Source: Clostridia bacterium (GTDB taxonomy: Bacteria; Bacillota; Clostridia; Oscillospirales; Acutalibacteraceae). Taken from it: 64,000 nucleotides of DNA. A program made the position numbers and the translations under genes. This document shows positions 4,564 to 46,907 of this stretch, one piece after another. The stretch covers positions 16,300 to 80,299 of the forward strand of contig JALENG010000033.1 of assembly GCA_022767925.1 (NCBI GenBank). Direction: 5' to 3'. The notes under the pieces are model-generated. The model saw only the letters and a list, made by a program, of their open reading frames with translations, had not been told where the DNA came from and ran no database searches. Every line of letters starts with the position of its first letter. Position 1 is the stretch's first letter.

Positions 4564-7500
4564 ATGCTGCACTTTATTCTGGGCCCCGCGGGAAGCGGAA
4601 AAACGGCCATTGCCCGCCGGCTTTTGGCGAAAAAAAGAGAAGAAGGGCAGGATGTTATGCTCCTTGTTCCGGAACAGTACTCCTATGAAACAGAGAGGGC
4701 GGTTTTGGAGCAATACGGTGAGGCCTTTTTTGCCGGCATCCAGATTACCAGTTTTGCGCGGCTCCCCGATGCCGTGTTCCGTCGTTATGGTTCAAAAAAC
4801 GGGAGCCGGCTGGATGATACCGGGCGTCATATTCTGATGAGCATGGCGCTGGATGATACACAGGATTATCAGCAGATGCTGGGCGGCCACGCGGCCGGCG
4901 GTGAGCTGATCCGCCGGCTTCTGCTGGTGGAAAAAGAGATGAAAACCTGCTCGCTGCAACCCCATGACCTGTCCCAGGCGGGGAAAAGCTGCGCGTCCTC
5001 CGCCCTGCGGGAAAAAGCGGAGGAAACCGCGCTGATTCTCTCGGCCTTTGAGGCCTATGTGCAGCAGAGCTACCTGGATCCCCAGGACGACCTGATGCGT
5101 CTATGTGAGAGCCTGACGGAACATCCGGAGTGTTTTTCCGGAATCACTCTGATTCTGGACTCTTTTCACGGCTTTACGGAACAGGAGTACCAGGTCCTGC
5201 AGATTCTGATGCGCCGCTGTAAAGATCTGTACATAACGCTGTGCACAGACCGAATGGGATTGCTGCCGGGGGATGATTCGCTGTTTGCCCCCGTGTGCCA
5301 CACCCTTGCGGTGCTGAAAAATATGGCCTCTCAGAATGGGATCCCCATCGCCGTCCCGCAGTATCTGACCGATAAGCCCCGCTATCAAAACAGCGAGCTC
5401 GCTTTTTTGGCGGACCGCTTTTTCCGCACGGGTCCACAGGAATATGAGGGTATTCCTGAACACATTCATTTGCTTCGTGCCGCCGGACGGTACGAGGAAT
5501 GTATGGCGGTTGGCGCCTTGATTCGCCGCTGTGTGCAGGAAAAGGGATACCGCTATCGGGATATCACCGTCATTGTGCGGGATGAAAACGAGTATCAAAA
5601 TGCTCTTCAGGCCGCTTTTGATCAGTATGAAATTCCCGTTTTTCTGGATCGCCCCGCTTCGGTGGAGAGCGAACCGCTGATCCGTCTGATTCTGGCTGCC
5701 TTTGATTGCGTACAGTATGGCTTTCGCACCGATGATGTGATGGCTGTATTAAAGTGCGGCCTGATTCCCATGTCCCTGGAGGAAATCGCCGGTATGGAGA
5801 ACTACGTCTTTCTATGGAATTTGCGCAGCGGCGATTGGAAAACCGAATGGACGAAAAATCCGGCGGGGTTCGTACAGGATTTTTCGGAAAAGCAGAAACA
5901 GGAGCTCGCCCATCTGGAAGGCCTGCGCCGGCAGCTGATAGAACCGTTGATCCATTTCGCGGAAAAAGGAAAAGATCCTACCGGAAAAGAGATCGCCGCG
6001 GCGGTATATTCACTTTTGCAGGAGTATCAGATTGAAACCACCCTGCCCCAATTGGCCGAACAGCTGCGCCTCAGCGGCAGGCTGGAGGATGCCCGCCTGC
6101 AGGAACGCCTGTGGGAGATGCTGATGCAGATTCTGGACCAGACGGCGATGACGTTGGCAGAGAGGAAAATTCCGTTGCTCCGCTATCATTATCTTCTCCG
6201 CCAGATTTTCCGGGTGCAGCGGCTTTCCAGTATTCCGCAGCACATGGATGAAGTGACGGTATCAGTGGCCGGGCGCATGCGGGCCGGGCAGCCGAAGGTG
6301 GTCTTCCTCTTGGGGGCTGTACTGGGAAAATTCCCGCGGATCGTCGGGGAATCGGATGGGATGTTCAGTGAAAACGAGAGAAAGGAATTGATTCGCTGCG
6401 GGCTGAATCTGCACGATACTCTGGAAGAACGGATTGACCAGGAGCGCTTTTCCGCGTATACATCGGTTTGCTCCGCATCCGAGGAAGTGGTGGTTTCCTA
6501 TCCGCTTTGGGATGGAAAGGAAGAAAATACGCCTTCGGAAATCATCACACAAATCCTCGCTCTTTTTCCCCGTTGCCCGATGGAAAACGCCCGGGATTTG
6601 CCGCTTTGTGTGACAGCCTCGTCTGCCGAGACCCTTCTGGCCCAATTTGCCCTGCGTCACCGGGATCATTCGGCCGTTGCGGCCTCGGTGCGGACAGCGG
6701 CTCAGCGTCTTCCCGATATTCAGTCGAGCGTGCAGGCCGTTTATGCGGCCTCCAATGGGGTGGAGGGGAAGATCCGGGATTCCCGTACCGCCCGAAAGCT
6801 CTTTATGGAGCAGAAAATCTCCGCTACCCAGATCGAAACCTACTATAAATGCCCGTTCCGCTATTTTTGCCGGTATGGGCTGCGCATAAAAGAACCCTTG
6901 CGCGCCGAGCTCAATGCGCTGCAATACGGCAATCTGGCCCATTATGTCCTGGAGCATATGCTTCCCCAGCTGGCAGAGAATCCATCGATTCAGGGTGATT
7001 CCCTGCAGGAAAAAGTGGATCAGTGGATGGACCGGTACGCGCAGGAGACGCTGGGGGGCCTGTCCTCCCAAACCGCCCGCTTCCAGGCGATGTTCCGCCA
7101 CTATCGGGAGGTTATCGGTGCGGTAGTGCGCTATGCCGCGGATGAAATGCGCGCAACGGATTTTACCCCGGCGTATTTTGAACAGGAATTGGGGCAGGCG
7201 CCGGTGGATACGCTGAAAATTACGCTCCCCGACGGGGAATCCGTGGAAGTCGGCGGGAAGATCGACCGAATAGATCTGTGCCGGATCGGGGAGAAAACCT
7301 ATGTGCGTATCATTGATTACAAAACGGGAAAGAAGGATTTCGAGCTCTCCCGCATGCTGTCCGGCATGGATCTGCAGATGATGCTGTACCTCTGTGCGGT
7401 TCTGGAGAATCATCTTTTTTCTCCGGCCGGAATTTTGTATATGCCGGTGCGGACAGATGGAAACGGGAAAATTGCGGACCGTATGAGCGGAATGGTGGTG

Positions 7501-7902
7501 GAGAATGATTCCGTTCTCACCAAAATGGACCACACCTACCGCGATGAGGGGAAGGGCGCATTTATCCCGGTGGGGAAGACAAAAGCCGGCGCCTTTGCCC
7601 GGGGAAGCCGCGTGATCAGTGAGAGCGGCATGAAAACAGCTCTCTCCTATACCCGCAGCCGGGTGGAGATTATGGCCAAAGAACTGTGCAAGGGGAATAT
7701 TCAGGCGCGGCCCCTTCTGGTTCAGGAGCACGGTTGTTCCTACTGCCCGTATTACGCTGTTTGCGGAAAAGAGTATCAGAGATTCCCGGTGGAAAAGAAC
7801 AAACAAAGCCCGGAGGAAACACTCAGACAGATGCAGGAAGAGATGAAAGAAGGTATGGCGGATGGCAACAGCATGGACCCCGGCCCAGAAGCTGGCTATT
7901 GA
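4564..7902 (+). CDS. addB: helicase-exonuclease AddAB, subunit AddB
   Basis: Walker A GPAGSGKT. C-terminal PD-(D/E)XK nuclease with an Fe-S cysteine cluster (CSYCPYYAVC). SD AAGGAAGG at 4550-4557. Confidence 0.9.
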   Translation: MLHFILGPAGSGKTAIARRLLAKKREEGQDVMLLVPEQYSYETERAVLEQYGEAFFAGIQITSFARLPDAVFRRYGSKNGSRLDDTGRHILMSMALDDTQDYQQMLGGHAAGGELIRRLLLVEKEMKTCSLQPHDLSQAGKSCASSALREKAEETALILSAFEAYVQQSYLDPQDDLMRLCESLTEHPECFSGITLILDSFHGFTEQEYQVLQILMRRCKDLYITLCTDRMGLLPGDDSLFAPVCHTLAVLKNMASQNGIPIAVPQYLTDKPRYQNSELAFLADRFFRTGPQEYEGIPEHIHLLRAAGRYEECMAVGALIRRCVQEKGYRYRDITVIVRDENEYQNALQAAFDQYEIPVFLDRPASVESEPLIRLILAAFDCVQYGFRTDDVMAVLKCGLIPMSLEEIAGMENYVFLWNLRSGDWKTEWTKNPAGFVQDFSEKQKQELAHLEGLRRQLIEPLIHFAEKGKDPTGKEIAAAVYSLLQEYQIETTLPQLAEQLRLSGRLEDARLQERLWEMLMQILDQTAMTLAERKIPLLRYHYLLRQIFRVQRLSSIPQHMDEVTVSVAGRMRAGQPKVVFLLGAVLGKFPRIVGESDGMFSENERKELIRCGLNLHDTLEERIDQERFSAYTSVCSASEEVVVSYPLWDGKEENTPSEIITQILALFPRCPMENARDLPLCVTASSAETLLAQFALRHRDHSAVAASVRTAAQRLPDIQSSVQAVYAASNGVEGKIRDSRTARKLFMEQKISATQIETYYKCPFRYFCRYGLRIKEPLRAELNALQYGNLAHYVLEHMLPQLAENPSIQGDSLQEKVDQWMDRYAQETLGGLSSQTARFQAMFRHYREVIGAVVRYAADEMRATDFTPAYFEQELGQAPVDTLKITLPDGESVEVGGKIDRIDLCRIGEKTYVRIIDYKTGKKDFELSRMLSGMDLQMMLYLCAVLENHLFSPAGILYMPVRTDGNGKIADRMSGMVVENDSVLTKMDHTYRDEGKGAFIPVGKTKAGAFARGSRVISESGMKTALSYTRSRVEIMAKELCKGNIQARPLLVQEHGCSYCPYYAVCGKEYQRFPVEKNKQSPEETLRQMQEEMKEGMADGNSMDPGPEAGY

Positions 7903-10900
7903 CCGGCGGGAAGGTACGGTTCTGGTATCGGCCGCAGCCGGAAGCGGAAAGACAGCGGTGCTGGTTCAGCGGATGATCGAGCGGATCACCGACCCGGAGA
8001 ATCCGGGCAATGTAGATCGGATTTTGATGGTGACCTTTTCCAAAAAGGCAGCGGCGGAAATGCGGGCCCGTGTACAAAAAGCGTTATCCGACCTCTTACT
8101 GCAGGATCCTGAAAATGGTCATCTGAAACAGCAGCTGCTGCGACTGCCGCAGGCAAAAATCAGCACCGTTCACAGCTTTTGCAACGACCTGGTTCGAGAG
8201 TTTTCCTCCTTGCTGCCCATTTCCTCCGATTTCCGCATTGCCGATGAGAATGAACTGGCTCTTTTAAAAGCGGACGCCATGGAACAACTGCTGGAGGAGT
8301 GCTATGCGCAGCCGACCGGGGAATTCCGGTTTCTGGCCGATCTGTTCAGCACTGACCGCAGCGATACCGGTCTGGAAAAAGTGATCGATCAGGTTGATGA
8401 GTTTTTGTCCTCCCATCCCTTTCCAAAATTCTGGATGGAGAAAACCCTGCAGCTCTATGATCCCCAACTGCCTGCGGAACAGACGGTCTGGGGGTGCAGC
8501 GCCATGCAGGACGCGCTGGATATCGCTCGGTATTACCAGGAAAGCATCCCTCTCTGGCTCTCGATTCTCGAGGAGGAACCGGAAATCTATGCCGCGTATG
8601 CAGATGTTCTGCTCGCGTTGCAGCAGGATCTTTCCCGAATTCCTGCGGACATCGACGGAATTTCCTGGGGGGAATTCCGGGAGAAAATGAGCGGCCTGAC
8701 GGTGGGAAGCCCCAAAGCCTTCCGCGGCTCCATGGCAAAAAAGTATCCGACCGATCATCCCCTTCGCGTTATGATGAAGGGCCTGCTCGATCAGATGAAA
8801 AAGGATTTTCAGAAAATCGGTCAGGAAAGCGGTCAGGAAAGTGGGGATTCTCTCTGCCCGGCGGAAGAGGATCTGCGGGAAAGTGTGGCCACTTCGCGGA
8901 AAACCGCCGGGGAAATTTTCCGCATGGTGCTTCGCTATCGTGAGATCTTTTCCGGGCTGAAAGCGGAACAAAACGTGGCCGATTACGATGATCTGGAGCA
9001 TTGGGCTCTTGCAATTCTGTGTATTCCGCAGCCGGATGGCTCCTTTTCCCGAACCGAGGCTGCCAAAGCCGTGGCCGCCCGGTTTGACGAAATTATGGTG
9101 GATGAGTACCAGGATACCAACGAGACCCAGGATACGATTTTCCGCGCCATTTCCCGACAGGAGGGCAATCTCTTTTTTGTGGGGGATGTAAAACAGAGCA
9201 TCTACAGTTTCCGGCAGGCCATGCCGCAGATCTTTCTTCATTATCGAAAAGAGTTCCCAGCGATGACGGAGGAAACGGATTTGTACCCGGGAAGCATCAC
9301 CCTGGACCGAAATTTTCGCTCCCGAAAAAGCGTGACGGATTTTGTCAACTTCACCTTTTCCCAGATTATGAGCGAGCATCTGGGGGATGTGTCCTATTCC
9401 GGTCAGGACCGCCTTGTCTGCGGAGCCGACTATTATCCGGACGGGGAAGGCTATGACCCGGAGTTCTGGCTGATCGACCGGGAACGCGCCGGTATGCCAA
9501 CGGAGGAAGAGGATGCCGTTCTGGAAGGAAGGCTGATTGCGGAAAAGATCCATGAAATGCTGGATTCGGGTTTGATGATTACGGATAAGGCCGGTCAGCG
9601 CCGGGTGCGGGAGGGGGATTTTTGCATCCTTCTGCGCACCGTCAGCCAGCAGGCTTCGGTATATGCCCGAGAACTGAACCGCGCCGGCCTTCATGCCTCA
9701 GCCGGAAGTGAAGAGGATTTTTTCCAAACCCCCGAGATCTCTCTGATTTTGAATCTTCTCCGTGTGATCGACAACCCCACCCGGGAAATCCCCCTGCTGG
9801 GCGTGATGATGAGTGCCCTGTACGGAGTTTCCCCGGATGAAATTTCGCAGATGCGCCTGGAACACCCCGGGGTCAATCTCTATACCGTTCTCGTCCAAAG
9901 CCGGAAAAAATATCCCAAGGCCGATTTACTGCTGCAGGATCTGGAGGCCTATCGGGCAGCCGCGGCGGTTATGCGTGCGGATGAGCTGCTTCTTTATCTC
10001 TTCCGTACCACACGGATTCTCCCTCTGATGCAGGCGCTGCCGCAGGGGGAGGAGCGCAGCGCGCGGCTGTATCAGCTTTTGGATTTTGCCAGCCATTTTG
10101 AGGAAGGAAACCGCACCGGCCTGTCGGTTTTTCTGCGCTATATCAGCCGGCTGGAGAAAAACCGGACCGTGTCCCCGGAAAAAGCGGCGCCGGATTCGGA
10201 AAAAGGGGTTACGATCCTCAGCGTACACAAATCAAAGGGGCTGGAGTTTCCCATTGTAATTCTGGCAGGATGCGGCCATCGTTTTCACAATGAAACGGCG
10301 CCCGTAACTCTTCACGCAGATATGGGGCTGGGGGTTTTTGCAAAGGAAAAGGGCTGTTCTTTTGTCCGGAATATGATTTTGCAGAGAAAGCGGCAGGAGC
10401 AGTATTCGGAGGAAATGCGGATTCTGTATGTGGCCATGACCCGCGCCAAGGAAAAGCTGATCATGGTAATGACCGCCGATAAAGGAGAGGAAACTCTCCG
10501 GCGGATTTACACGCACAGCGGAATGGGGAAAACCCTTCCGTTTGTGGCCCTTCGGAATTGCCGCTGCCTGGGGGATTGGCTGCTTGCGTGTGTTCTGCGT
10601 CACCCGGATTCGGCCGGATGGCGCAGGGAACTGCATCTGGATAAGGGATATGTCCGCACGGAAGACGCGGGTTCAATGAAATTGTGCCTGCTGGCTCCTT
10701 TTGCGGAAAAAGAGGAAGTAAAGGGCGAGGAGATATCCGATGCGGAGCCGGTGGCGGAGGATGTGGAAAAAATCGTTGAAAAGGTTCGGTACCGCTATCC
10801 CTATCAGGAAATGACGGGAACAGAGACAAAAGTGACCGCCTCTGAAATTGCGGCCCGGGATCAAAAGGAGAGGGAACCGGTCTTTCTCCGCCCGCTGTTC

Positions 10901-42670: not shown

Positions 42671-43372
42671 TTATTCCTCATCGCTTTCCTTTGACTCGGG
42701 ATAAACAGAAGTGTAGGCCAGAATATCCATATCCCCATCGTAGACTTCCACATCAATCGGTGTTTTTTCCAGCCCGGCAAATTCATCGTACAGACACACC
42801 AGATTCCAAACAGCCTTGCAGATCACTTCATCGTTCCCACTGCCATAGGAGATGCTCTCGGCGTAAATGGTCAGAACGGTTAATTCTTCATTGATGGACA
42901 GGGAATAGACCGAATCAAAATCATCGTCATCATTCAGCTTTTCCACCGATTTCCGAACATTCGCCTTCAGATTTTTCAAAAAGACTTCGTAGTCACTTTT
43001 ATAAAACGTATACAGATACGTTTTATCCCCGGTTTTCTCCACGGAGATGGCCCCATATTTTTCGGCGTCTTCCTCTATTTCCGAAAATTCGGTGTCTCCA
43101 AAATAACTGACACTGACTTCCACCTGGACTTTTTCTTCCTCTGTCTGTGAAGAAAGGTCAGAAGAGGATTCCGAAGAGGATTCTTCTGAAGAATTTTCCT
43201 CCGGCAAGCTAGGAGAAGGATCCGGAGTGGGGGTGGGGGGGATACTCTCCACCTCTTCCGATTGTTCAGATAGAGAAGATTCCCCGGAGCTCTCCTCGGC
43301 ACTTTGGCAAGCGGTAAAAATCAGCATAGAACTCAGCAGCAACGCAAAGAATAATGCAAATCGTTGTTTCAT
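42671..43372 (-). CDS. hypothetical lipoprotein with Ser/Glu/Pro-rich linker
   Basis: Signal peptide and lipobox (LLLSSMLIFTAC) when started at ATG 43372. No family recognised. Confidence 0.6.
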   Translation of the reverse strand: MKQRFALFFALLLSSMLIFTACQSAEESSGESSLSEQSEEVESIPPTPTPDPSPSLPEENSSEESSSESSSDLSSQTEEEKVQVEVSVSYFGDTEFSEIEEDAEKYGAISVEKTGDKTYLYTFYKSDYEVFLKNLKANVRKSVEKLNDDDDFDSVYSLSINEELTVLTIYAESISYGSGNDEVICKAVWNLVCLYDEFAGLEKTPIDVEVYDGDMDILAYTSVYPESKESDEE

Positions 43373-43559
43373 AAATGGTAATTCACTCTCCTCTTTCAAA
43401 ACAAAATGGGGAAGGGCACATCTTTTTGCGGCCATATCTATATACTGAGTATACCGCAAACGGCAAAAATGGGCAAGTTTTTTTCAAAATCGCTATGGTA
43501 AACAACAGGAAAATCATGTATACTGAGAAATATAAGCGAGAAAAAGGGAGAAGTTTCAA

Positions 43560-44369
43560 ATGTATGGTGCTATTTTGGGGGATATTGCCGGCTCACGCTT
43601 TGAATTCAGTCACCCGCAGGGATTTTGCGCCAAAAAAGAAGTTCTTTTTGCCCCTTCCAGCCGCTATACAGATGATACGGTTATGACTATTGCAACCAAA
43701 TACGCTGTGCTGACCGGTACTTCGTATGCAAAAGCCTATGGCTCTTTTGGACGCCGCTATAAAAAAGCGGGATACGGCCCTTTATTCCTGACATGGCTTG
43801 ATAACCGCAGCGAGAAGGGTTATAACAGCTACGGAAACGGGGCCGCCATGCGTGTCAGTTTTTTGGGACACTACTATAACAGCCTGAGGGAAGTGGAAAG
43901 GGAAGCAAAGAAAAGTGCAGAATGCACCCATAACCATCCGGAGGGAATTAAAGGGGCTGTCTGCGTGGCCGGTTGCGTGTTTCTGGCCGAACACGGGGCA
44001 ACAAAAAAACAAATTCTGCACTATGCAAAAGAATTTGGATATCATAAATTGTACCCTTTATGGGTACGGCGACCTTTTGAAAAATTCGATCTGACCTGTC
44101 AGCACTCAGTTCCTCTTGCACTGCGCTGCTTTCTGGAGAGCAACAGCTGGGAGGAATGCATCCGCAATGTGTACAGCGTCCACTGTGATACCGATACTAT
44201 AGCAGCTATTGCCGGTGGAATTGCCGACTCTTTTTTCCACGGCACTGGTTTTGAAGAAGAACGCCTGCTCCGCCATTATTTAGTGAAACCCACCGCCCAG
44301 GGAACCACTGATACTTTTTTGTATGATTGGGCCGTAAAGGAATGGAGGAATCCGACTTATGATCGTTGA
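43560..44369 (+). CDS. ADP-ribosylglycohydrolase family protein
   Basis: GDIAGSRFEF, YTDDTVMT and CDTDTIAAIAGGIA metal-site motifs are all present. 269 aa. Confidence 0.85.
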   Translation: MYGAILGDIAGSRFEFSHPQGFCAKKEVLFAPSSRYTDDTVMTIATKYAVLTGTSYAKAYGSFGRRYKKAGYGPLFLTWLDNRSEKGYNSYGNGAAMRVSFLGHYYNSLREVEREAKKSAECTHNHPEGIKGAVCVAGCVFLAEHGATKKQILHYAKEFGYHKLYPLWVRRPFEKFDLTCQHSVPLALRCFLESNSWEECIRNVYSVHCDTDTIAAIAGGIADSFFHGTGFEEERLLRHYLVKPTAQGTTDTFLYDWAVKEWRNPTYDR

Positions 44370-44871
44370 AACATATCAGTCCCCGGTTGTCAAAAAGACA
44401 CTGGATGAAGGGAAAACCTATTACGCTTTGCCGAGCATCAATCTGGATAAAGCCTACCGCTGTTTAATTGATATGCTTCATCTGGACTGCCAATGCCCGA
44501 TTTTCGGCGTTCTTCGCGGATACAAGCAATGCACAAATGGGGCAGGGACCAGCAGCATTAAGCTGATTCTGGATGTGCCGGATGAAGAAATCCACCTCAC
44601 CGAATATGATGATTGGGCCGAGTTTCTGCACAATATGAAATATATCAATCCGGTGAATTACCGCTCGGTAAATCCCACGTATCTGGAATCACTGCCGCAA
44701 AAGCATCTGGATGAAATTATCGAATCGCTGACAACTCCCCGGCCTCCGAAAAAATATAAAATTCCACAGGTTGTGCTTGAGCGAATTGATCCTGCTTGGG
44801 TGATCGGTTCAGAAGTACCCGCCGCCGATAATTCATTAGTGGATAAAATCAAGGACCTTTTTCAGCGATAA
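44359..44871 (+). CDS. hypothetical protein, translationally coupled to the ADP-ribosylglycohydrolase (possibly DUF3841-like)
   Basis: 170 aa. Its ATG lies inside the last codons of the ARH gene (11-nt overlap), with GGAGG 10 nt upstream. The block LILDVPDEEIHLTEYDDWAEFL resembles DUF3841 from memory only. Confidence 0.6.
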   Translation: MIVETYQSPVVKKTLDEGKTYYALPSINLDKAYRCLIDMLHLDCQCPIFGVLRGYKQCTNGAGTSSIKLILDVPDEEIHLTEYDDWAEFLHNMKYINPVNYRSVNPTYLESLPQKHLDEIIESLTTPRPPKKYKIPQVVLERIDPAWVIGSEVPAADNSLVDKIKDLFQR

Positions 44872-44883
44872 ATTAATAGAAGT

Positions 44884-44920
44884 AAAAAGCAGGATTTTCC
44901 ATAGAGAATCCTGCTTTTTC
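44884..44920. terminator. bidirectional terminator
   Basis: AGCAGGATT / AATCCTGCT stem, flanked by AAAAA and TTTTT. Confidence 0.75.
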
Positions 44921-44942: not shown

Positions 44943-45953
44943 TTATGATTTTTTCTTTTTGACAGAAAAATTTGCCAGCGGATTGGAATTTGCCGCCTTT
45001 TTCATTTGATCATCGGACAAGTGGGTATAGATTTCTGTCGTTCCAAGATTTTCATGCCCCAAAATGTCTTTCAGCACACGAATATCCACATTCCCGTGCT
45101 GATACATCAGGGTGGCCGCCGTATGCCGCAGTTTGTGTACCGAGTATCCGGCGGACATCTCGATCCGATCCAGATATTTTTTCACAATGTATTGCACGGT
45201 TTTGGGGCTGATCCGCTTTTTCAAACGGCTCAAAAACAGGGCGTCTTTGTCCTGCACTCCATCTTTGGGACGGACGGCAATATACTGATCAATTGCGTCT
45301 AAACAGGCCTGATTCAGGTAGACAATCCGTTCTTTGTTTCCTTTTCCAAGAATACGGACGGTCTGACTGTGATGGCGGATATCCGAGAGATTGATGCCTA
45401 CCAGTTCCGATAACCGCATGCCACAGTTTAAAAATAAAGTTAAAATACATCGGTCACGCTCGGCATCCGGGCCATCCACCGATTGGATCAGCTCCATACT
45501 TTGCTCTAATGTCAGGTATTTGGGAAGGGATTTTGCCCGCTTGGGTGATTCGAGGGCTTCCAAGGGATTGGCCTGCAAAAGACCCTTCTGATCGGTCAAA
45601 AATTGATAGAAACGCCGCAAACTGGAAGTTTTCCGCAGCCGTGTATTGGCCGTATTTTGGCGATCAATGACAAGATAATTCATATAAGACAAAACCGTTT
45701 GAAAATCGACCGCCAATACCTGATCGTTGGATACCGCAGCGGCATCAATTTCCTCAAACGGAAGATCGGATGGCACATCATGCAGACATTCTTTGCGATA
45801 ATAGCGAAAAAAGGTGCGCAAATCCACGCCGTATTCCCAAACCGTTTTCGGCGAGCGGCCGCGTACGGTAAGCTGGTACTGCAAAAATTCCGCCGCCAAA
45901 GCGGGAATTTGTAGAAGTATATTTCGGTCAAATGTACGAAGATCTGTAGGCAT
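44943..45953 (-). CDS. tyrosine recombinase (XerC/XerD-like integrase family)
   Basis: C-terminal catalytic region with HKLRHTAAT and LGHENLGTTEIYTH. N-terminal SAM-like core-binding domain. 336 aa. Confidence 0.88.
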   Translation of the reverse strand: MPTDLRTFDRNILLQIPALAAEFLQYQLTVRGRSPKTVWEYGVDLRTFFRYYRKECLHDVPSDLPFEEIDAAAVSNDQVLAVDFQTVLSYMNYLVIDRQNTANTRLRKTSSLRRFYQFLTDQKGLLQANPLEALESPKRAKSLPKYLTLEQSMELIQSVDGPDAERDRCILTLFLNCGMRLSELVGINLSDIRHHSQTVRILGKGNKERIVYLNQACLDAIDQYIAVRPKDGVQDKDALFLSRLKKRISPKTVQYIVKKYLDRIEMSAGYSVHKLRHTAATLMYQHGNVDIRVLKDILGHENLGTTEIYTHLSDDQMKKAANSNPLANFSVKKKKS

Positions 45954-46274: not shown

Positions 46275-46907
46275 TTAGGCTTTTATGGCAAACCGTAACC
46301 ACGAAATGATATTCTCGTTATTACCCTTTTTCAGTATCCAGTTTACTACATCCAGTTTGGACGACACTTTGGCTGTCATCGCAGGATTCAATTTCTCAAG
46401 CAGCTCCACCATTTCCACCTGGGACTCTTTTCGTATTTTTTTGAGCAATTCTGTATCCTTCAGTTTTCTTTCGGCTTCTTCTCTGGGATATCCCTGCCCA
46501 AAAGGTTCAGAAAACAGCGCTTGAATGGTTGCTTTGCAATTTTCGGTTCCCTTCCAGGTATAATCTTCTCCCAAGGGCAATGAAATCGCATTGCCGTTAT
46601 TGATCTGCGCAAACAGATAAGCATCTCGGGGTGACGGTGCATATCCACAGATAACCCCCGGCATGCTGTTGCAGGCAAGCATCATCCCCTGGCCTGAGGA
46701 ACACCCGGTAATAACAAAATCAATGGATCCGCTTGCCAGCAAAAGACCTATGGCAACAGATATTTCCATGTATGAATAATTAACTTGCTCATTTAAGTAG
46801 CAGCCAAAATTTATAACCTCATGTCCTTTGGCACATTCGCACGTTGTTTCATACAGAAGGTGATTCTTCTCCTTTTGGGAACTTGCCTGTATAATTCCGA
46901 TTCTCAT
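46275..46907 (-). CDS. RpiB/LacA/LacB family sugar-phosphate isomerase (long form)
   Basis: ITGCSSGQGMMLACNSMPGVICGY parallels the RpiB active-site loop. GGAGG precedes the ATG. Confidence 0.65.
   Translation of the reverse strand: MRIGIIQASSQKEKNHLLYETTCECAKGHEVINFGCYLNEQVNYSYMEISVAIGLLLASGSIDFVITGCSSGQGMMLACNSMPGVICGYAPSPRDAYLFAQINNGNAISLPLGEDYTWKGTENCKATIQALFSEPFGQGYPREEAERKLKDTELLKKIRKESQVEMVELLEKLNPAMTAKVSSKLDVVNWILKKGNNENIISWLRFAIKA

Follow-up and report, generated by a model that had tools for sequence, protein, structure and literature searches.

Background

Pairs that combine an ADP-ribosyltransferase (ART) with an ADP-ribosylhydrolase (ARH) are already known as a kind. DarT-DarG1 follows the logic of a type IV toxin-antitoxin system (DarTG1/2; PMC11825919), and a 'DarHTG' variant, in which a DarT homologue is accompanied by an ARH3-like antitoxin named DarG3, has recently been reported (PMC13069673). 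Iyer et al. 2022 noted toxin-antitoxin pairs of ARTs with ADP-ribosylglycohydrolases (ARGs) and proposed that host ARG systems erase virus-written ADP-ribosylation (PMC9503650). Here we analyse two overlapping genes in a stretch of 64,000 nt from a Clostridia bacterium of the family Acutalibacteraceae (contig JALENG010000033.1 of GenBank assembly GCA_022767925.1). This whole stretch is referred to as the window, and coordinates are positions within it. The first gene (43560..44369, + strand, 269 aa) encodes an ADP-ribosylhydrolase of the ARH/ARG family, ARH3-like and predicted to be an eraser, which we call ARH. The second (44359..44871, + strand, 170 aa) encodes P170, an ART-fold protein and divergent member of the DUF3841 superfamily that we predict to be a writer. 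The explanation that we favour, with modest confidence, is that ARH and P170 form one operon encoding a writer-eraser pair for ADP-ribosylation that resembles a type IV toxin-antitoxin system.

Results and discussion

AlphaFold2 gives a confident model of P170, with a predicted local distance difference test score (pLDDT) of 90.7 and a predicted template-modelling (TM) score of 0.81. When this model was compared to the PDB with Foldseek, 41 of the top 50 chains belonged to the ART superfamily (E 0.3-4, TM 0.30-0.38). The neighbours include the nucleic-acid enzymes DarT and Tpt1/KptA and the toxins pertussis S1, cholera toxin, EcPltA, CARDS, TreX and RhsP2, as well as CteC, Xre-RES, DUF952 and Agrobacterium 6b. 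In the viral library BFVD the best match is an unnamed 142-aa protein (E = 3e-7, TM 0.62/0.73), and the same list holds phage DarT (probability 0.97) and phage Tpt1. A second model was made for P0193, a relative from a mobile element that is 22% identical to P170 (pLDDT 84.8), and ranks 1-27 of its PDB matches are all ARTs. Its neighbours include Scabin (probability up to 0.80), ScARP, pertussis S1, DarT, mosquitocidal toxin (MTX), Tpt1 and cholera toxin.

By these matches the P170 model has the ART fold (a split beta-sheet NAD+-binding core), each match being weak by itself. Because two independent models converge on one fold class despite the weak pairwise scores, we regard the predicted ART fold of P170 as solid. 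The link between P170 and the ARTs is not detected by sequence and profile methods. A preliminary description of this locus, made from the DNA alone, had proposed looking for an NAD-using or ART fold in the 170-aa protein, and both models returned one.

The ARH protein belongs to Pfam PF03747, which it matches over residues 1-222 with 105.1 bits (cutoff 26.2, E = 7e-30). It contains the motifs GDIAGSRFEF, YTDDTVMT and CDTDTIAAIAGG, and the residues of the binuclear metal and catalytic site (the Glu of GDxxGxxxE, TDD(T) and DTD(T)) are present and align to the ARH3 motifs. All 71 orthologues have E15, T37, D38, D39, D210, D212 and T213, while position 40 is T in 68 of them and S in 3. Judging from these residues, ARH is most likely an active hydrolase. 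The preliminary description had reached the same view from the metal motifs of this one protein, and the conservation of the catalytic and metal residues across the 71 orthologues strengthens it.

The closest relatives of ARH among solved structures are ARH3 enzymes, first 6g1p (E = 3e-12) and then human and mouse ARH3 and MJ1187. An assignment to DraG (TIGR02662) was rejected at 30 bits versus an equivalog cutoff of 337, and so was one to Tri1 (NF041672) at 14.9 bits versus an equivalog cutoff of 490. The Tri1 analogy drawn earlier for this protein does not therefore extend to family membership. The ARH family is very large and comprises over 7,800 clusters at E <= 1e-10. Identity is at least 57% for all of the 120 nearest clusters, and the few that carry a source name come from Acutalibacter, Scatolibacter and unclassified Clostridiales.

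The two genes meet in a compact junction (44344..44369, + strand) made up of a GGAGG, the P170 start codon and the ARH stop codon. The P170 ATG (44359-44361) lies within the final ARH codons, the ARH TGA follows at 44367-44369, and the reading frames overlap by 11 nt; GGAGG is found at 44344-44348, 10 nt 5' of the P170 ATG. The coordinates of the open reading frames (ORFs) thus agree with the 11-nt overlap and the GGAGG first noticed by inspection of the sequence.

We scanned one genome per GTDB species and obtained 77 P170 loci. The named genera are Acutalibacter, Neglectibacter/Neglecta, Heritagella, Gallacutalibacter, Anaeromassilibacillus, Hominenteromicrobium, Scatolibacter, Faecalispora and 'Ruminococcus', and the loci without a named genus belong to unclassified Clostridia metagenome-assembled genomes. 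The nearest relative, at 73% identity, is Candidatus Heritagella caecorum. ARH lies directly upstream of P170 on the same strand in all 76 informative loci, the 77th having no upstream DNA, so that the adjacency for which a check in other genomes had been suggested is absolute within this Acutalibacteraceae clade.

The distance between the two genes is short in most of the 77 pairs: 36 overlap, mostly by 4 nt in the ATGA manner, 21 are separated by 0-30 nt and 15 by 31-100 nt, leaving 5 with more than 100 nt. All 77 have a purine-rich run resembling a Shine-Dalgarno sequence. The earlier claim of translational coupling is consistent with this tight operon, in which 57 of the 77 orthologous pairs overlap or lie at most 30 nt apart. 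The 11-nt overlap in the window and these 57 pairs suggest, from gene layout, the adjacent, co-transcribed genes with coupled expression that are expected of a type IV toxin-antitoxin system.

Three loci have unusual junctions, and two of them (L061 and L062) belong to the five pairs with more than 100 nt between the genes. A gene of the short-chain dehydrogenase/reductase type lies between ARH and P170 at L062 (5204-5965). A gap of like size (about 800 nt) is found at the junction of L061 (3509-4387), where the ORF caller placed an antisense ORF, and L043 has an unexplained gap of 471 nt.

The pairwise identities of ARH and P170 correlate (r = 0.85), with ARH being the more conserved (mean identity 0.68 versus 0.57 for P170). 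The window holds one ARH and one P170, and there is one copy per genome. The flanks vary between genera yet consist of housekeeping genes in recurring orders (MatE, lipoprotein, glpK, hisH, hisF). With its single copy and housekeeping flanks the pair looks vertically inherited rather than part of a mobile island.

One explanation for such a constant adjacency is conserved synteny without any functional link, since both genes are inherited vertically with their neighbours and their linkage could persist by descent alone. We consider this very improbable. The flanks change between genera, yet ARH and P170 stay together in 76 of 76 loci, and the start/stop overlap has been maintained or re-created in many lineages. 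An ADP-ribose hydrolase and an ART-fold protein also make a functionally coherent pairing. That an ARH is paired with an ART-fold protein, and that the pair is kept in about 77 species, points to a system that probably adds and removes ADP-ribose reversibly.

In the writer-eraser pair that we favour, P170 would be a minimal ART-fold protein that uses NAD+ to ADP-ribosylate a cellular macromolecule. The ARH3-like hydrolase would be made first and in step with P170 by means of the overlapping or near-abutting frames. It would then remove the mark set by P170, keeping the writer harmless or the mark reversible, in a manner comparable to DarT-DarG and DraT-DraG.

Our leading guess for the target of P170 is a nucleic acid or an O-linked acceptor, for which there are hints only. 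ARTs that act on DNA or RNA (DarT, Tpt1, Scabin and ScARP) are prominent among the structural neighbours, and the presumed eraser resembles ARH3, not DraG or ARH1. The P170 orthologues are moreover mostly basic, with a median isoelectric point (pI) of 9.4, though the window P170 has a pI of 5.4. The mobile-element relatives have a median pI of 4.9. The acidic P170 of the window among mostly basic orthologues amounts to a charge switch inside one orthologous group.

P170 alone has no significant family match in Pfam, NCBIfam, PADLOC or PHROGs. Its match to DUF3841 (PF12952) covers residues 62-97 only and reaches 14.9 bits (E = 0.021), below the gathering cutoff of 27 for that family. The Pfam and PADLOC models of DarT (DUF4433) gave no match to P170 at E <= 0.1. 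The close homologues of P170 form 63 clusters, none of them functionally annotated, and the few source names are from Acutalibacter. We built a profile from 27 close homologues (alignment A1) and searched 1.84 billion representative proteins exhaustively, which gave 131 matches. In the resulting superfamily alignment of 51 sequences (A2), 34 members match DUF3841, the best at 2e-13, and one relative, P0175, exceeds the cutoff with 28.5 bits.

P170 is linked to DUF3841 through these intermediate sequences, and because 34 of the 51 A2 members match DUF3841 we place it as a divergent branch of that superfamily. A resemblance to DUF3841 had been suggested in the preliminary description; it is real but distant, with P170 itself at 14.9 versus 27 bits and the link carried by the 34 of 51 profile-linked relatives. 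A literature search on DUF3841, PF12952 and IPR024211 found no papers, and neither a function nor a structure was found for DUF3841. One further sequence concerns the P170 family: P0005, a 154-aa protein from an 826-bp contig, is a predicted protein 69% identical to P170 over two-thirds of P170 and is also tagged with Pfam Phage_integrase. An artefact of gene calling or assembly, at the junction where the P170 and recombinase genes converge, may account for it.

The 131 matches to A1 include stand-alone proteins of 150-200 aa; others are domains that lie internally or at the C-terminus of proteins measuring 400-2600 aa. Within proteins of 900-2600 aa the P170-like domain is found alongside ART-PolyVal, Tpt1-like or Fic domains. 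It co-occurs with ART-PolyVal in P0098, P0103 and P0117, with a Tpt1-like domain in P0109 and weakly in P0133, and with Fic in P0106. These six proteins measure 579-2591 aa and their partner domains are ART-PolyVal, Tpt1-like, PARP-like and Fic. Since the P170/DUF3841-like domain and ART-type domains are found in one protein, some polypeptides would carry two or three ART-type modules. When the A2 profile was compared with hhalign to the ART-PolyVal domains of the same giant proteins no relationship was seen (probability 0.1). Polyvalent effector proteins from phages and conjugative elements have been described with a matching architecture (Iyer, Burroughs, Aravind 2017; PMC5512222).

A scan of viral contigs with a narrower alignment (A3) gave two loci, on contigs of 148 and 214 kb, and one of these contigs encodes the P170-like domain inside a 1125-aa ORF. 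At the locus on the 214-kb viral contig (L085, 6001-6432) the DUF3841-like match starts upstream of the sole long ORF listed (6238..8073, GTG start), which points to a frameshift or sequencing error, or to use of a non-standard genetic code by the phage. A tblastn search with P170 and a polyvalent-type domain against annotated phage and plasmid collections gave no match. Among five distant stand-alone relatives, three have neighbours that include VirB11-type ATPase, cell-wall hydrolase, methylase or HipA-like genes, while the other two are on short contigs with unannotated neighbours only.

Taken with the writer-eraser reading, these relatives suggest how the pair may have arisen. P170 would be a chromosomally fixed branch of DUF3841 whose other members reside on mobile elements, either standing alone or as modules of polyvalent proteins, and an effector domain of such an element would have become fixed in the chromosome together with, or beside, its eraser. 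That the pair is fixed, single-copy and embedded among housekeeping genes speaks for a physiological switch, or for a toxin-antitoxin pair domesticated long ago, rather than for a mobile defence cassette.

The conserved residues of P170 differ from those of canonical ARTs. No H-Y-E, H-Y-[EDQ] or R-S-E set was found on strands 1, 2 and 5, and no His or Arg is conserved. The absence of an R-S-E or H-Y-E triad had been remarked on from the single sequence and is borne out by conservation across the superfamily. Superfamily-wide, Q7 and P47 are invariant and T5, Y21, A23, Y33, F49, P74, W86, Q137 and W147 are at least 90% conserved, the conserved polar residues being Q7, Y21, Y33 and Q137. In the ARH-linked clade C44, T81, Q137 and E141 are invariant and E82 is present in 70 of 71 sequences; C46 is a further conserved residue, and about 20 residues are invariant in the orthologues. 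In known ARTs the strand-1 and fifth-strand positions carry His or Arg and the catalytic Glu, Asp or Gln. From the order of secondary structure elements, we infer that Q7 is at the end of strand 1 and Q137 at the start of the fifth core strand.

A catalytic Gln characterises the TNT NAD+ glycohydrolase (NADase), and ARH3-type enzymes hydrolyse small molecules such as O-acetyl-ADP-ribose. It is thus conceivable, although unlikely, that P170 acts as an NAD+ glycohydrolase or generates a small molecule derived from ADP-ribose, with ARH processing that molecule or its by-products in a metabolic or signalling unit. The ART/NADase-like fold of P170 would suit such a role, as would the invariant, superfamily-wide Q137 on the strand that usually bears the catalytic Glu, the precedents of TNT and of small-molecule hydrolysis by ARH3-type enzymes, and the position of the pair within 13 nt upstream of glpK-hisH-hisF in many species. 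Known NADase toxins are neutralised by immunity proteins that bind them and not by hydrolases, which argues against this explanation. The top structural neighbours of P170 are moreover transferases acting on DNA, RNA or protein, and Q137 is placed on the catalytic strand by secondary-structure order only.

The lack of a canonical triad may also mean that P170 is an inactive ART-fold protein serving ARH as targeting subunit, regulator or decoy. Overlapping reading frames are expected for subunits of one complex, and those of ARH and P170 fit this. P170 could, for example, help the host ARH to erase marks set by DUF3841-like or other ART effectors that mobile elements inject; related domains are indeed found in injected polyvalent proteins, and host ARG systems that erase virus-written ADP-ribosylation have been proposed (PMC9503650). 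We consider an inactive P170 quite unlikely, as some 20 invariant residues, many of them polar or aromatic and common to the mobile-element relatives, suggest that a ligand-binding or active site has been retained.

Several observations weigh against a writer-eraser pair. No structural match is significant singly, the PDB matches of both models having E-values of 0.07-4 and TM-scores of 0.30-0.39, and P170 matches no solved structure and no known ART family by sequence or profile (PDB searches with A1 and A2 gave no match even at E <= 10). Canonical triads are absent, and conservation of E82 is confined to the ARH-linked clade. For this reason P170 could be an NADase or a binder, or lack activity. 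The five distant stand-alone relatives have no ARH and are found in same-strand arrays of small genes of unknown function. Taken with the 76 of 76 loci, this means that P170 is always linked to ARH in the Acutalibacteraceae clade, while the rest of the superfamily shows no such linkage. No PADLOC defence model matches the locus. Finally, toxin-antitoxin and defence modules do not typically take the form of a single-copy pair that a whole family keeps in synteny with housekeeping genes; a patchy, mobile or island-like distribution, which is typical of type IV systems without strictly defining them, was not found.

The surroundings of the pair were examined for signs of mobility. A tyrosine recombinase gene (44943-45953, - strand, 336 aa) converges on P170. 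Its product scores 225, 205 and 214 bits with XerC/XerD/XerA-type profiles, all under the equivalog cutoffs. It adjoins the pair only in the window and in the nearest relative, L001 (85% identical), and is therefore probably a chromosomal Xer paralogue and not the integrase of an element. The GC content of the pair region is 0.471 compared to a window mean of 0.520 +/- 0.033 (11th percentile), and the dip spans about 40 to 47 kb and many genes, so it is not specific to the pair. We rejected an island bounded by the recombinase, given that the flanks are housekeeping genes in synteny, that the recombinase has an Xer-like profile and that the GC dip is mild and non-specific.

A classical mobile toxin-antitoxin or abortive-infection cassette, carried on an integrated element next to an integrase, would nonetheless share the antitoxin-first order, the overlapping frames and the ART-fold partner. 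There are DarTG-type precedents, including an ARH-type antitoxin, and the recombinase gene lies 72 nt downstream on the opposite strand. We find such a cassette improbable: the recombinase has an Xer-like profile and adjoins the pair in no locus but the window and its nearest relative, the flanks elsewhere are housekeeping genes in conserved order with one copy per genome, the low GC is mild and not pair-specific, and no match was found in PADLOC or in the phage and plasmid collections.

The hints of mobility in the preliminary description thus fare poorly against the single copy, the co-divergence of the two proteins (r = 0.85) and the housekeeping neighbours. The recombinase is indeed adjacent, but it is Xer-like and common only to the window and L001. 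The lower-GC patch exists as well, in the form of a mild dip (0.471 versus 0.520) spread over about 40-47 kb.

The same description had the pair bracketed by bidirectional terminators, which proves right on the downstream side. A hairpin at about 44884..44919, flanked by A and T runs, folds strongly on both strands, with -21.8 kcal/mol (z = -7.1) for the + strand and -17.5 kcal/mol (z = -5.1) for the - strand, and forms a bidirectional intrinsic terminator common to P170 (+) and the convergent recombinase gene (-). It was detected by folding and was missed by a simple terminator scanner. The upstream side is a divergent intergenic region (43373..43559) between a lipoprotein gene (-) and ARH (+), presumably with promoter function. 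Folding of 43373-43559 gave no significant RNA structure (z = 0.29) and no terminator. The region contains one promoter-like site on the - strand (43476..43448), and GGGAG, the ribosome-binding site of ARH, is immediately 5' of 43560.

The lipoprotein gene (42671-43372, - strand) is divergent from ARH and encodes a signal peptide with an FTAC lipobox and a Ser/Glu-rich linker. A homologous lipoprotein is found in the same position at 14 loci from several genera (e.g. L002-L008, L046, L056, L061, L062, L065, L066 and L073), which makes it the most persistent neighbour after ARH and P170. Two gene orders illustrate the flanks. In one, kinase-like/GHKL/unknown genes precede ARH-P170, which is followed by glpK-hisH-hisF. 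In the other, MatE and the lipoprotein gene (-) precede the pair, and glpK 13 nt on, hisH-hisF and a penicillin-binding peptidase gene come after it. In many Acutalibacter/Neglectibacter genomes glpK begins 13 nt past the P170 stop codon, then hisH-hisF (e.g. L088, 5001-8634), so that the pair may be co-transcribed there with the glycerol kinase and histidine-biosynthesis genes. In the window, by contrast, the strong terminator isolates the pair. Further downstream, between the recombinase gene and an ABC exporter operon of the MacB/HlyD type, a gene at 46275-46907 (- strand) encodes an uncharacterised 210-aa RpiB/LacAB-family protein resembling sugar-phosphate isomerases, which matches the NCBIfam 'hypothetical protein' equivalog PRK09273 with 232 bits.

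Implications

Four features of this locus appear to be new. The predicted writer comes from the unstudied DUF3841 superfamily, which our models assign to the ART fold. The conserved residues of P170, as read from the alignments, are non-canonical. The relatives of P170 occur as modules of polyvalent proteins, and the P170 branch is fixed together with a predicted eraser across a family of gut bacteria.

If P170 is an active transferase, DUF3841, which is absent from the searchable literature, would gain a fold and a testable activity. The family would then represent an ART clade without the defining His or Arg and, outside the ARH-linked clade, without Glu. Polyvalent modules of phages and conjugative elements would be linked to a domesticated, eraser-controlled copy fixed in a family of gut commensals, and another ARH-type eraser would be paired with a small ART, after DarG3. 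If P170 is inactive, the conserved coupling would still suggest that bacterial ARH enzymes have an accessory subunit yet to be explored.

A bolder idea, which we put forward as speculation and consider rather doubtful, is that the DUF3841-like proteins form an unrecognised ART clade with a Gln/Tyr site (Q7, Y21, Y33, Q137) that modifies nucleic acids like DarT, Scabin and Tpt1. They would be injected by mobile elements within polyvalent proteins, with one branch domesticated alongside an ARH3-like eraser as a core reversible system in gut bacteria of the Acutalibacteraceae.

Comparison with known systems

Tre1-Tri1, a type VI secretion ART toxin with its ARH immunity protein, resembles the pair in that an ARH-family protein protects against an ART. 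The window ARH falls far short of the Tri1 cutoff (14.9 versus 490 bits), the genes examined around the pair showed neither secretion-system genes nor domains for toxin delivery, and P170, unlike Tre1, is a stand-alone 170-aa protein of cytoplasmic type.

DraT-DraG and generic ART-ARG pairs likewise encode an ART writer with an ARH-family eraser, and the fixed chromosomal location of ARH-P170 would fit a regulatory use like that of DraT-DraG in nitrogenase ADP-ribosylation. In contrast, the window ARH is closer to ARH3 than to DraG (30 versus 337 bits), P170 is unrelated in sequence to the R-S-E enzymes of the DraT type, and the neighbours examined included no nitrogenase genes.

DarT-DarG and DarHTG differ from the pair in several ways. 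P170 has no sequence match to DarT/DUF4433 and conserves other residues, no helicase gene was identified among the recurrent neighbours, and in ARH-P170 the hydrolase comes first, in vertically inherited housekeeping synteny and not in a defence island. What is shared is a small ART-fold writer next to an ADP-ribose hydrolase that reverses the mark enzymatically, as we predict for P170 and ARH. The P170 and the P0193 model each have DarT among their best structural neighbours, and the eraser of DarHTG is ARH3-like as it is here.

P170 is joined by profile to DUF3841 (PF12952) through the 34 of 51 A2 members, although it is below the gathering cutoff itself and its ARH-linked clade has C44, T81 and E141 as extra invariant residues, with E82 in 70 of 71. 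The ART domain that PMC5512222 describes for polyvalent proteins is, in the part that concerns it, of the H-Y-D Tox-ART-HYD2 clade and is not the P170 domain. P170-like domains sit within polyvalent proteins and on viral contigs, whereas the P170 of the window is a solo chromosomal gene coupled to its predicted eraser.

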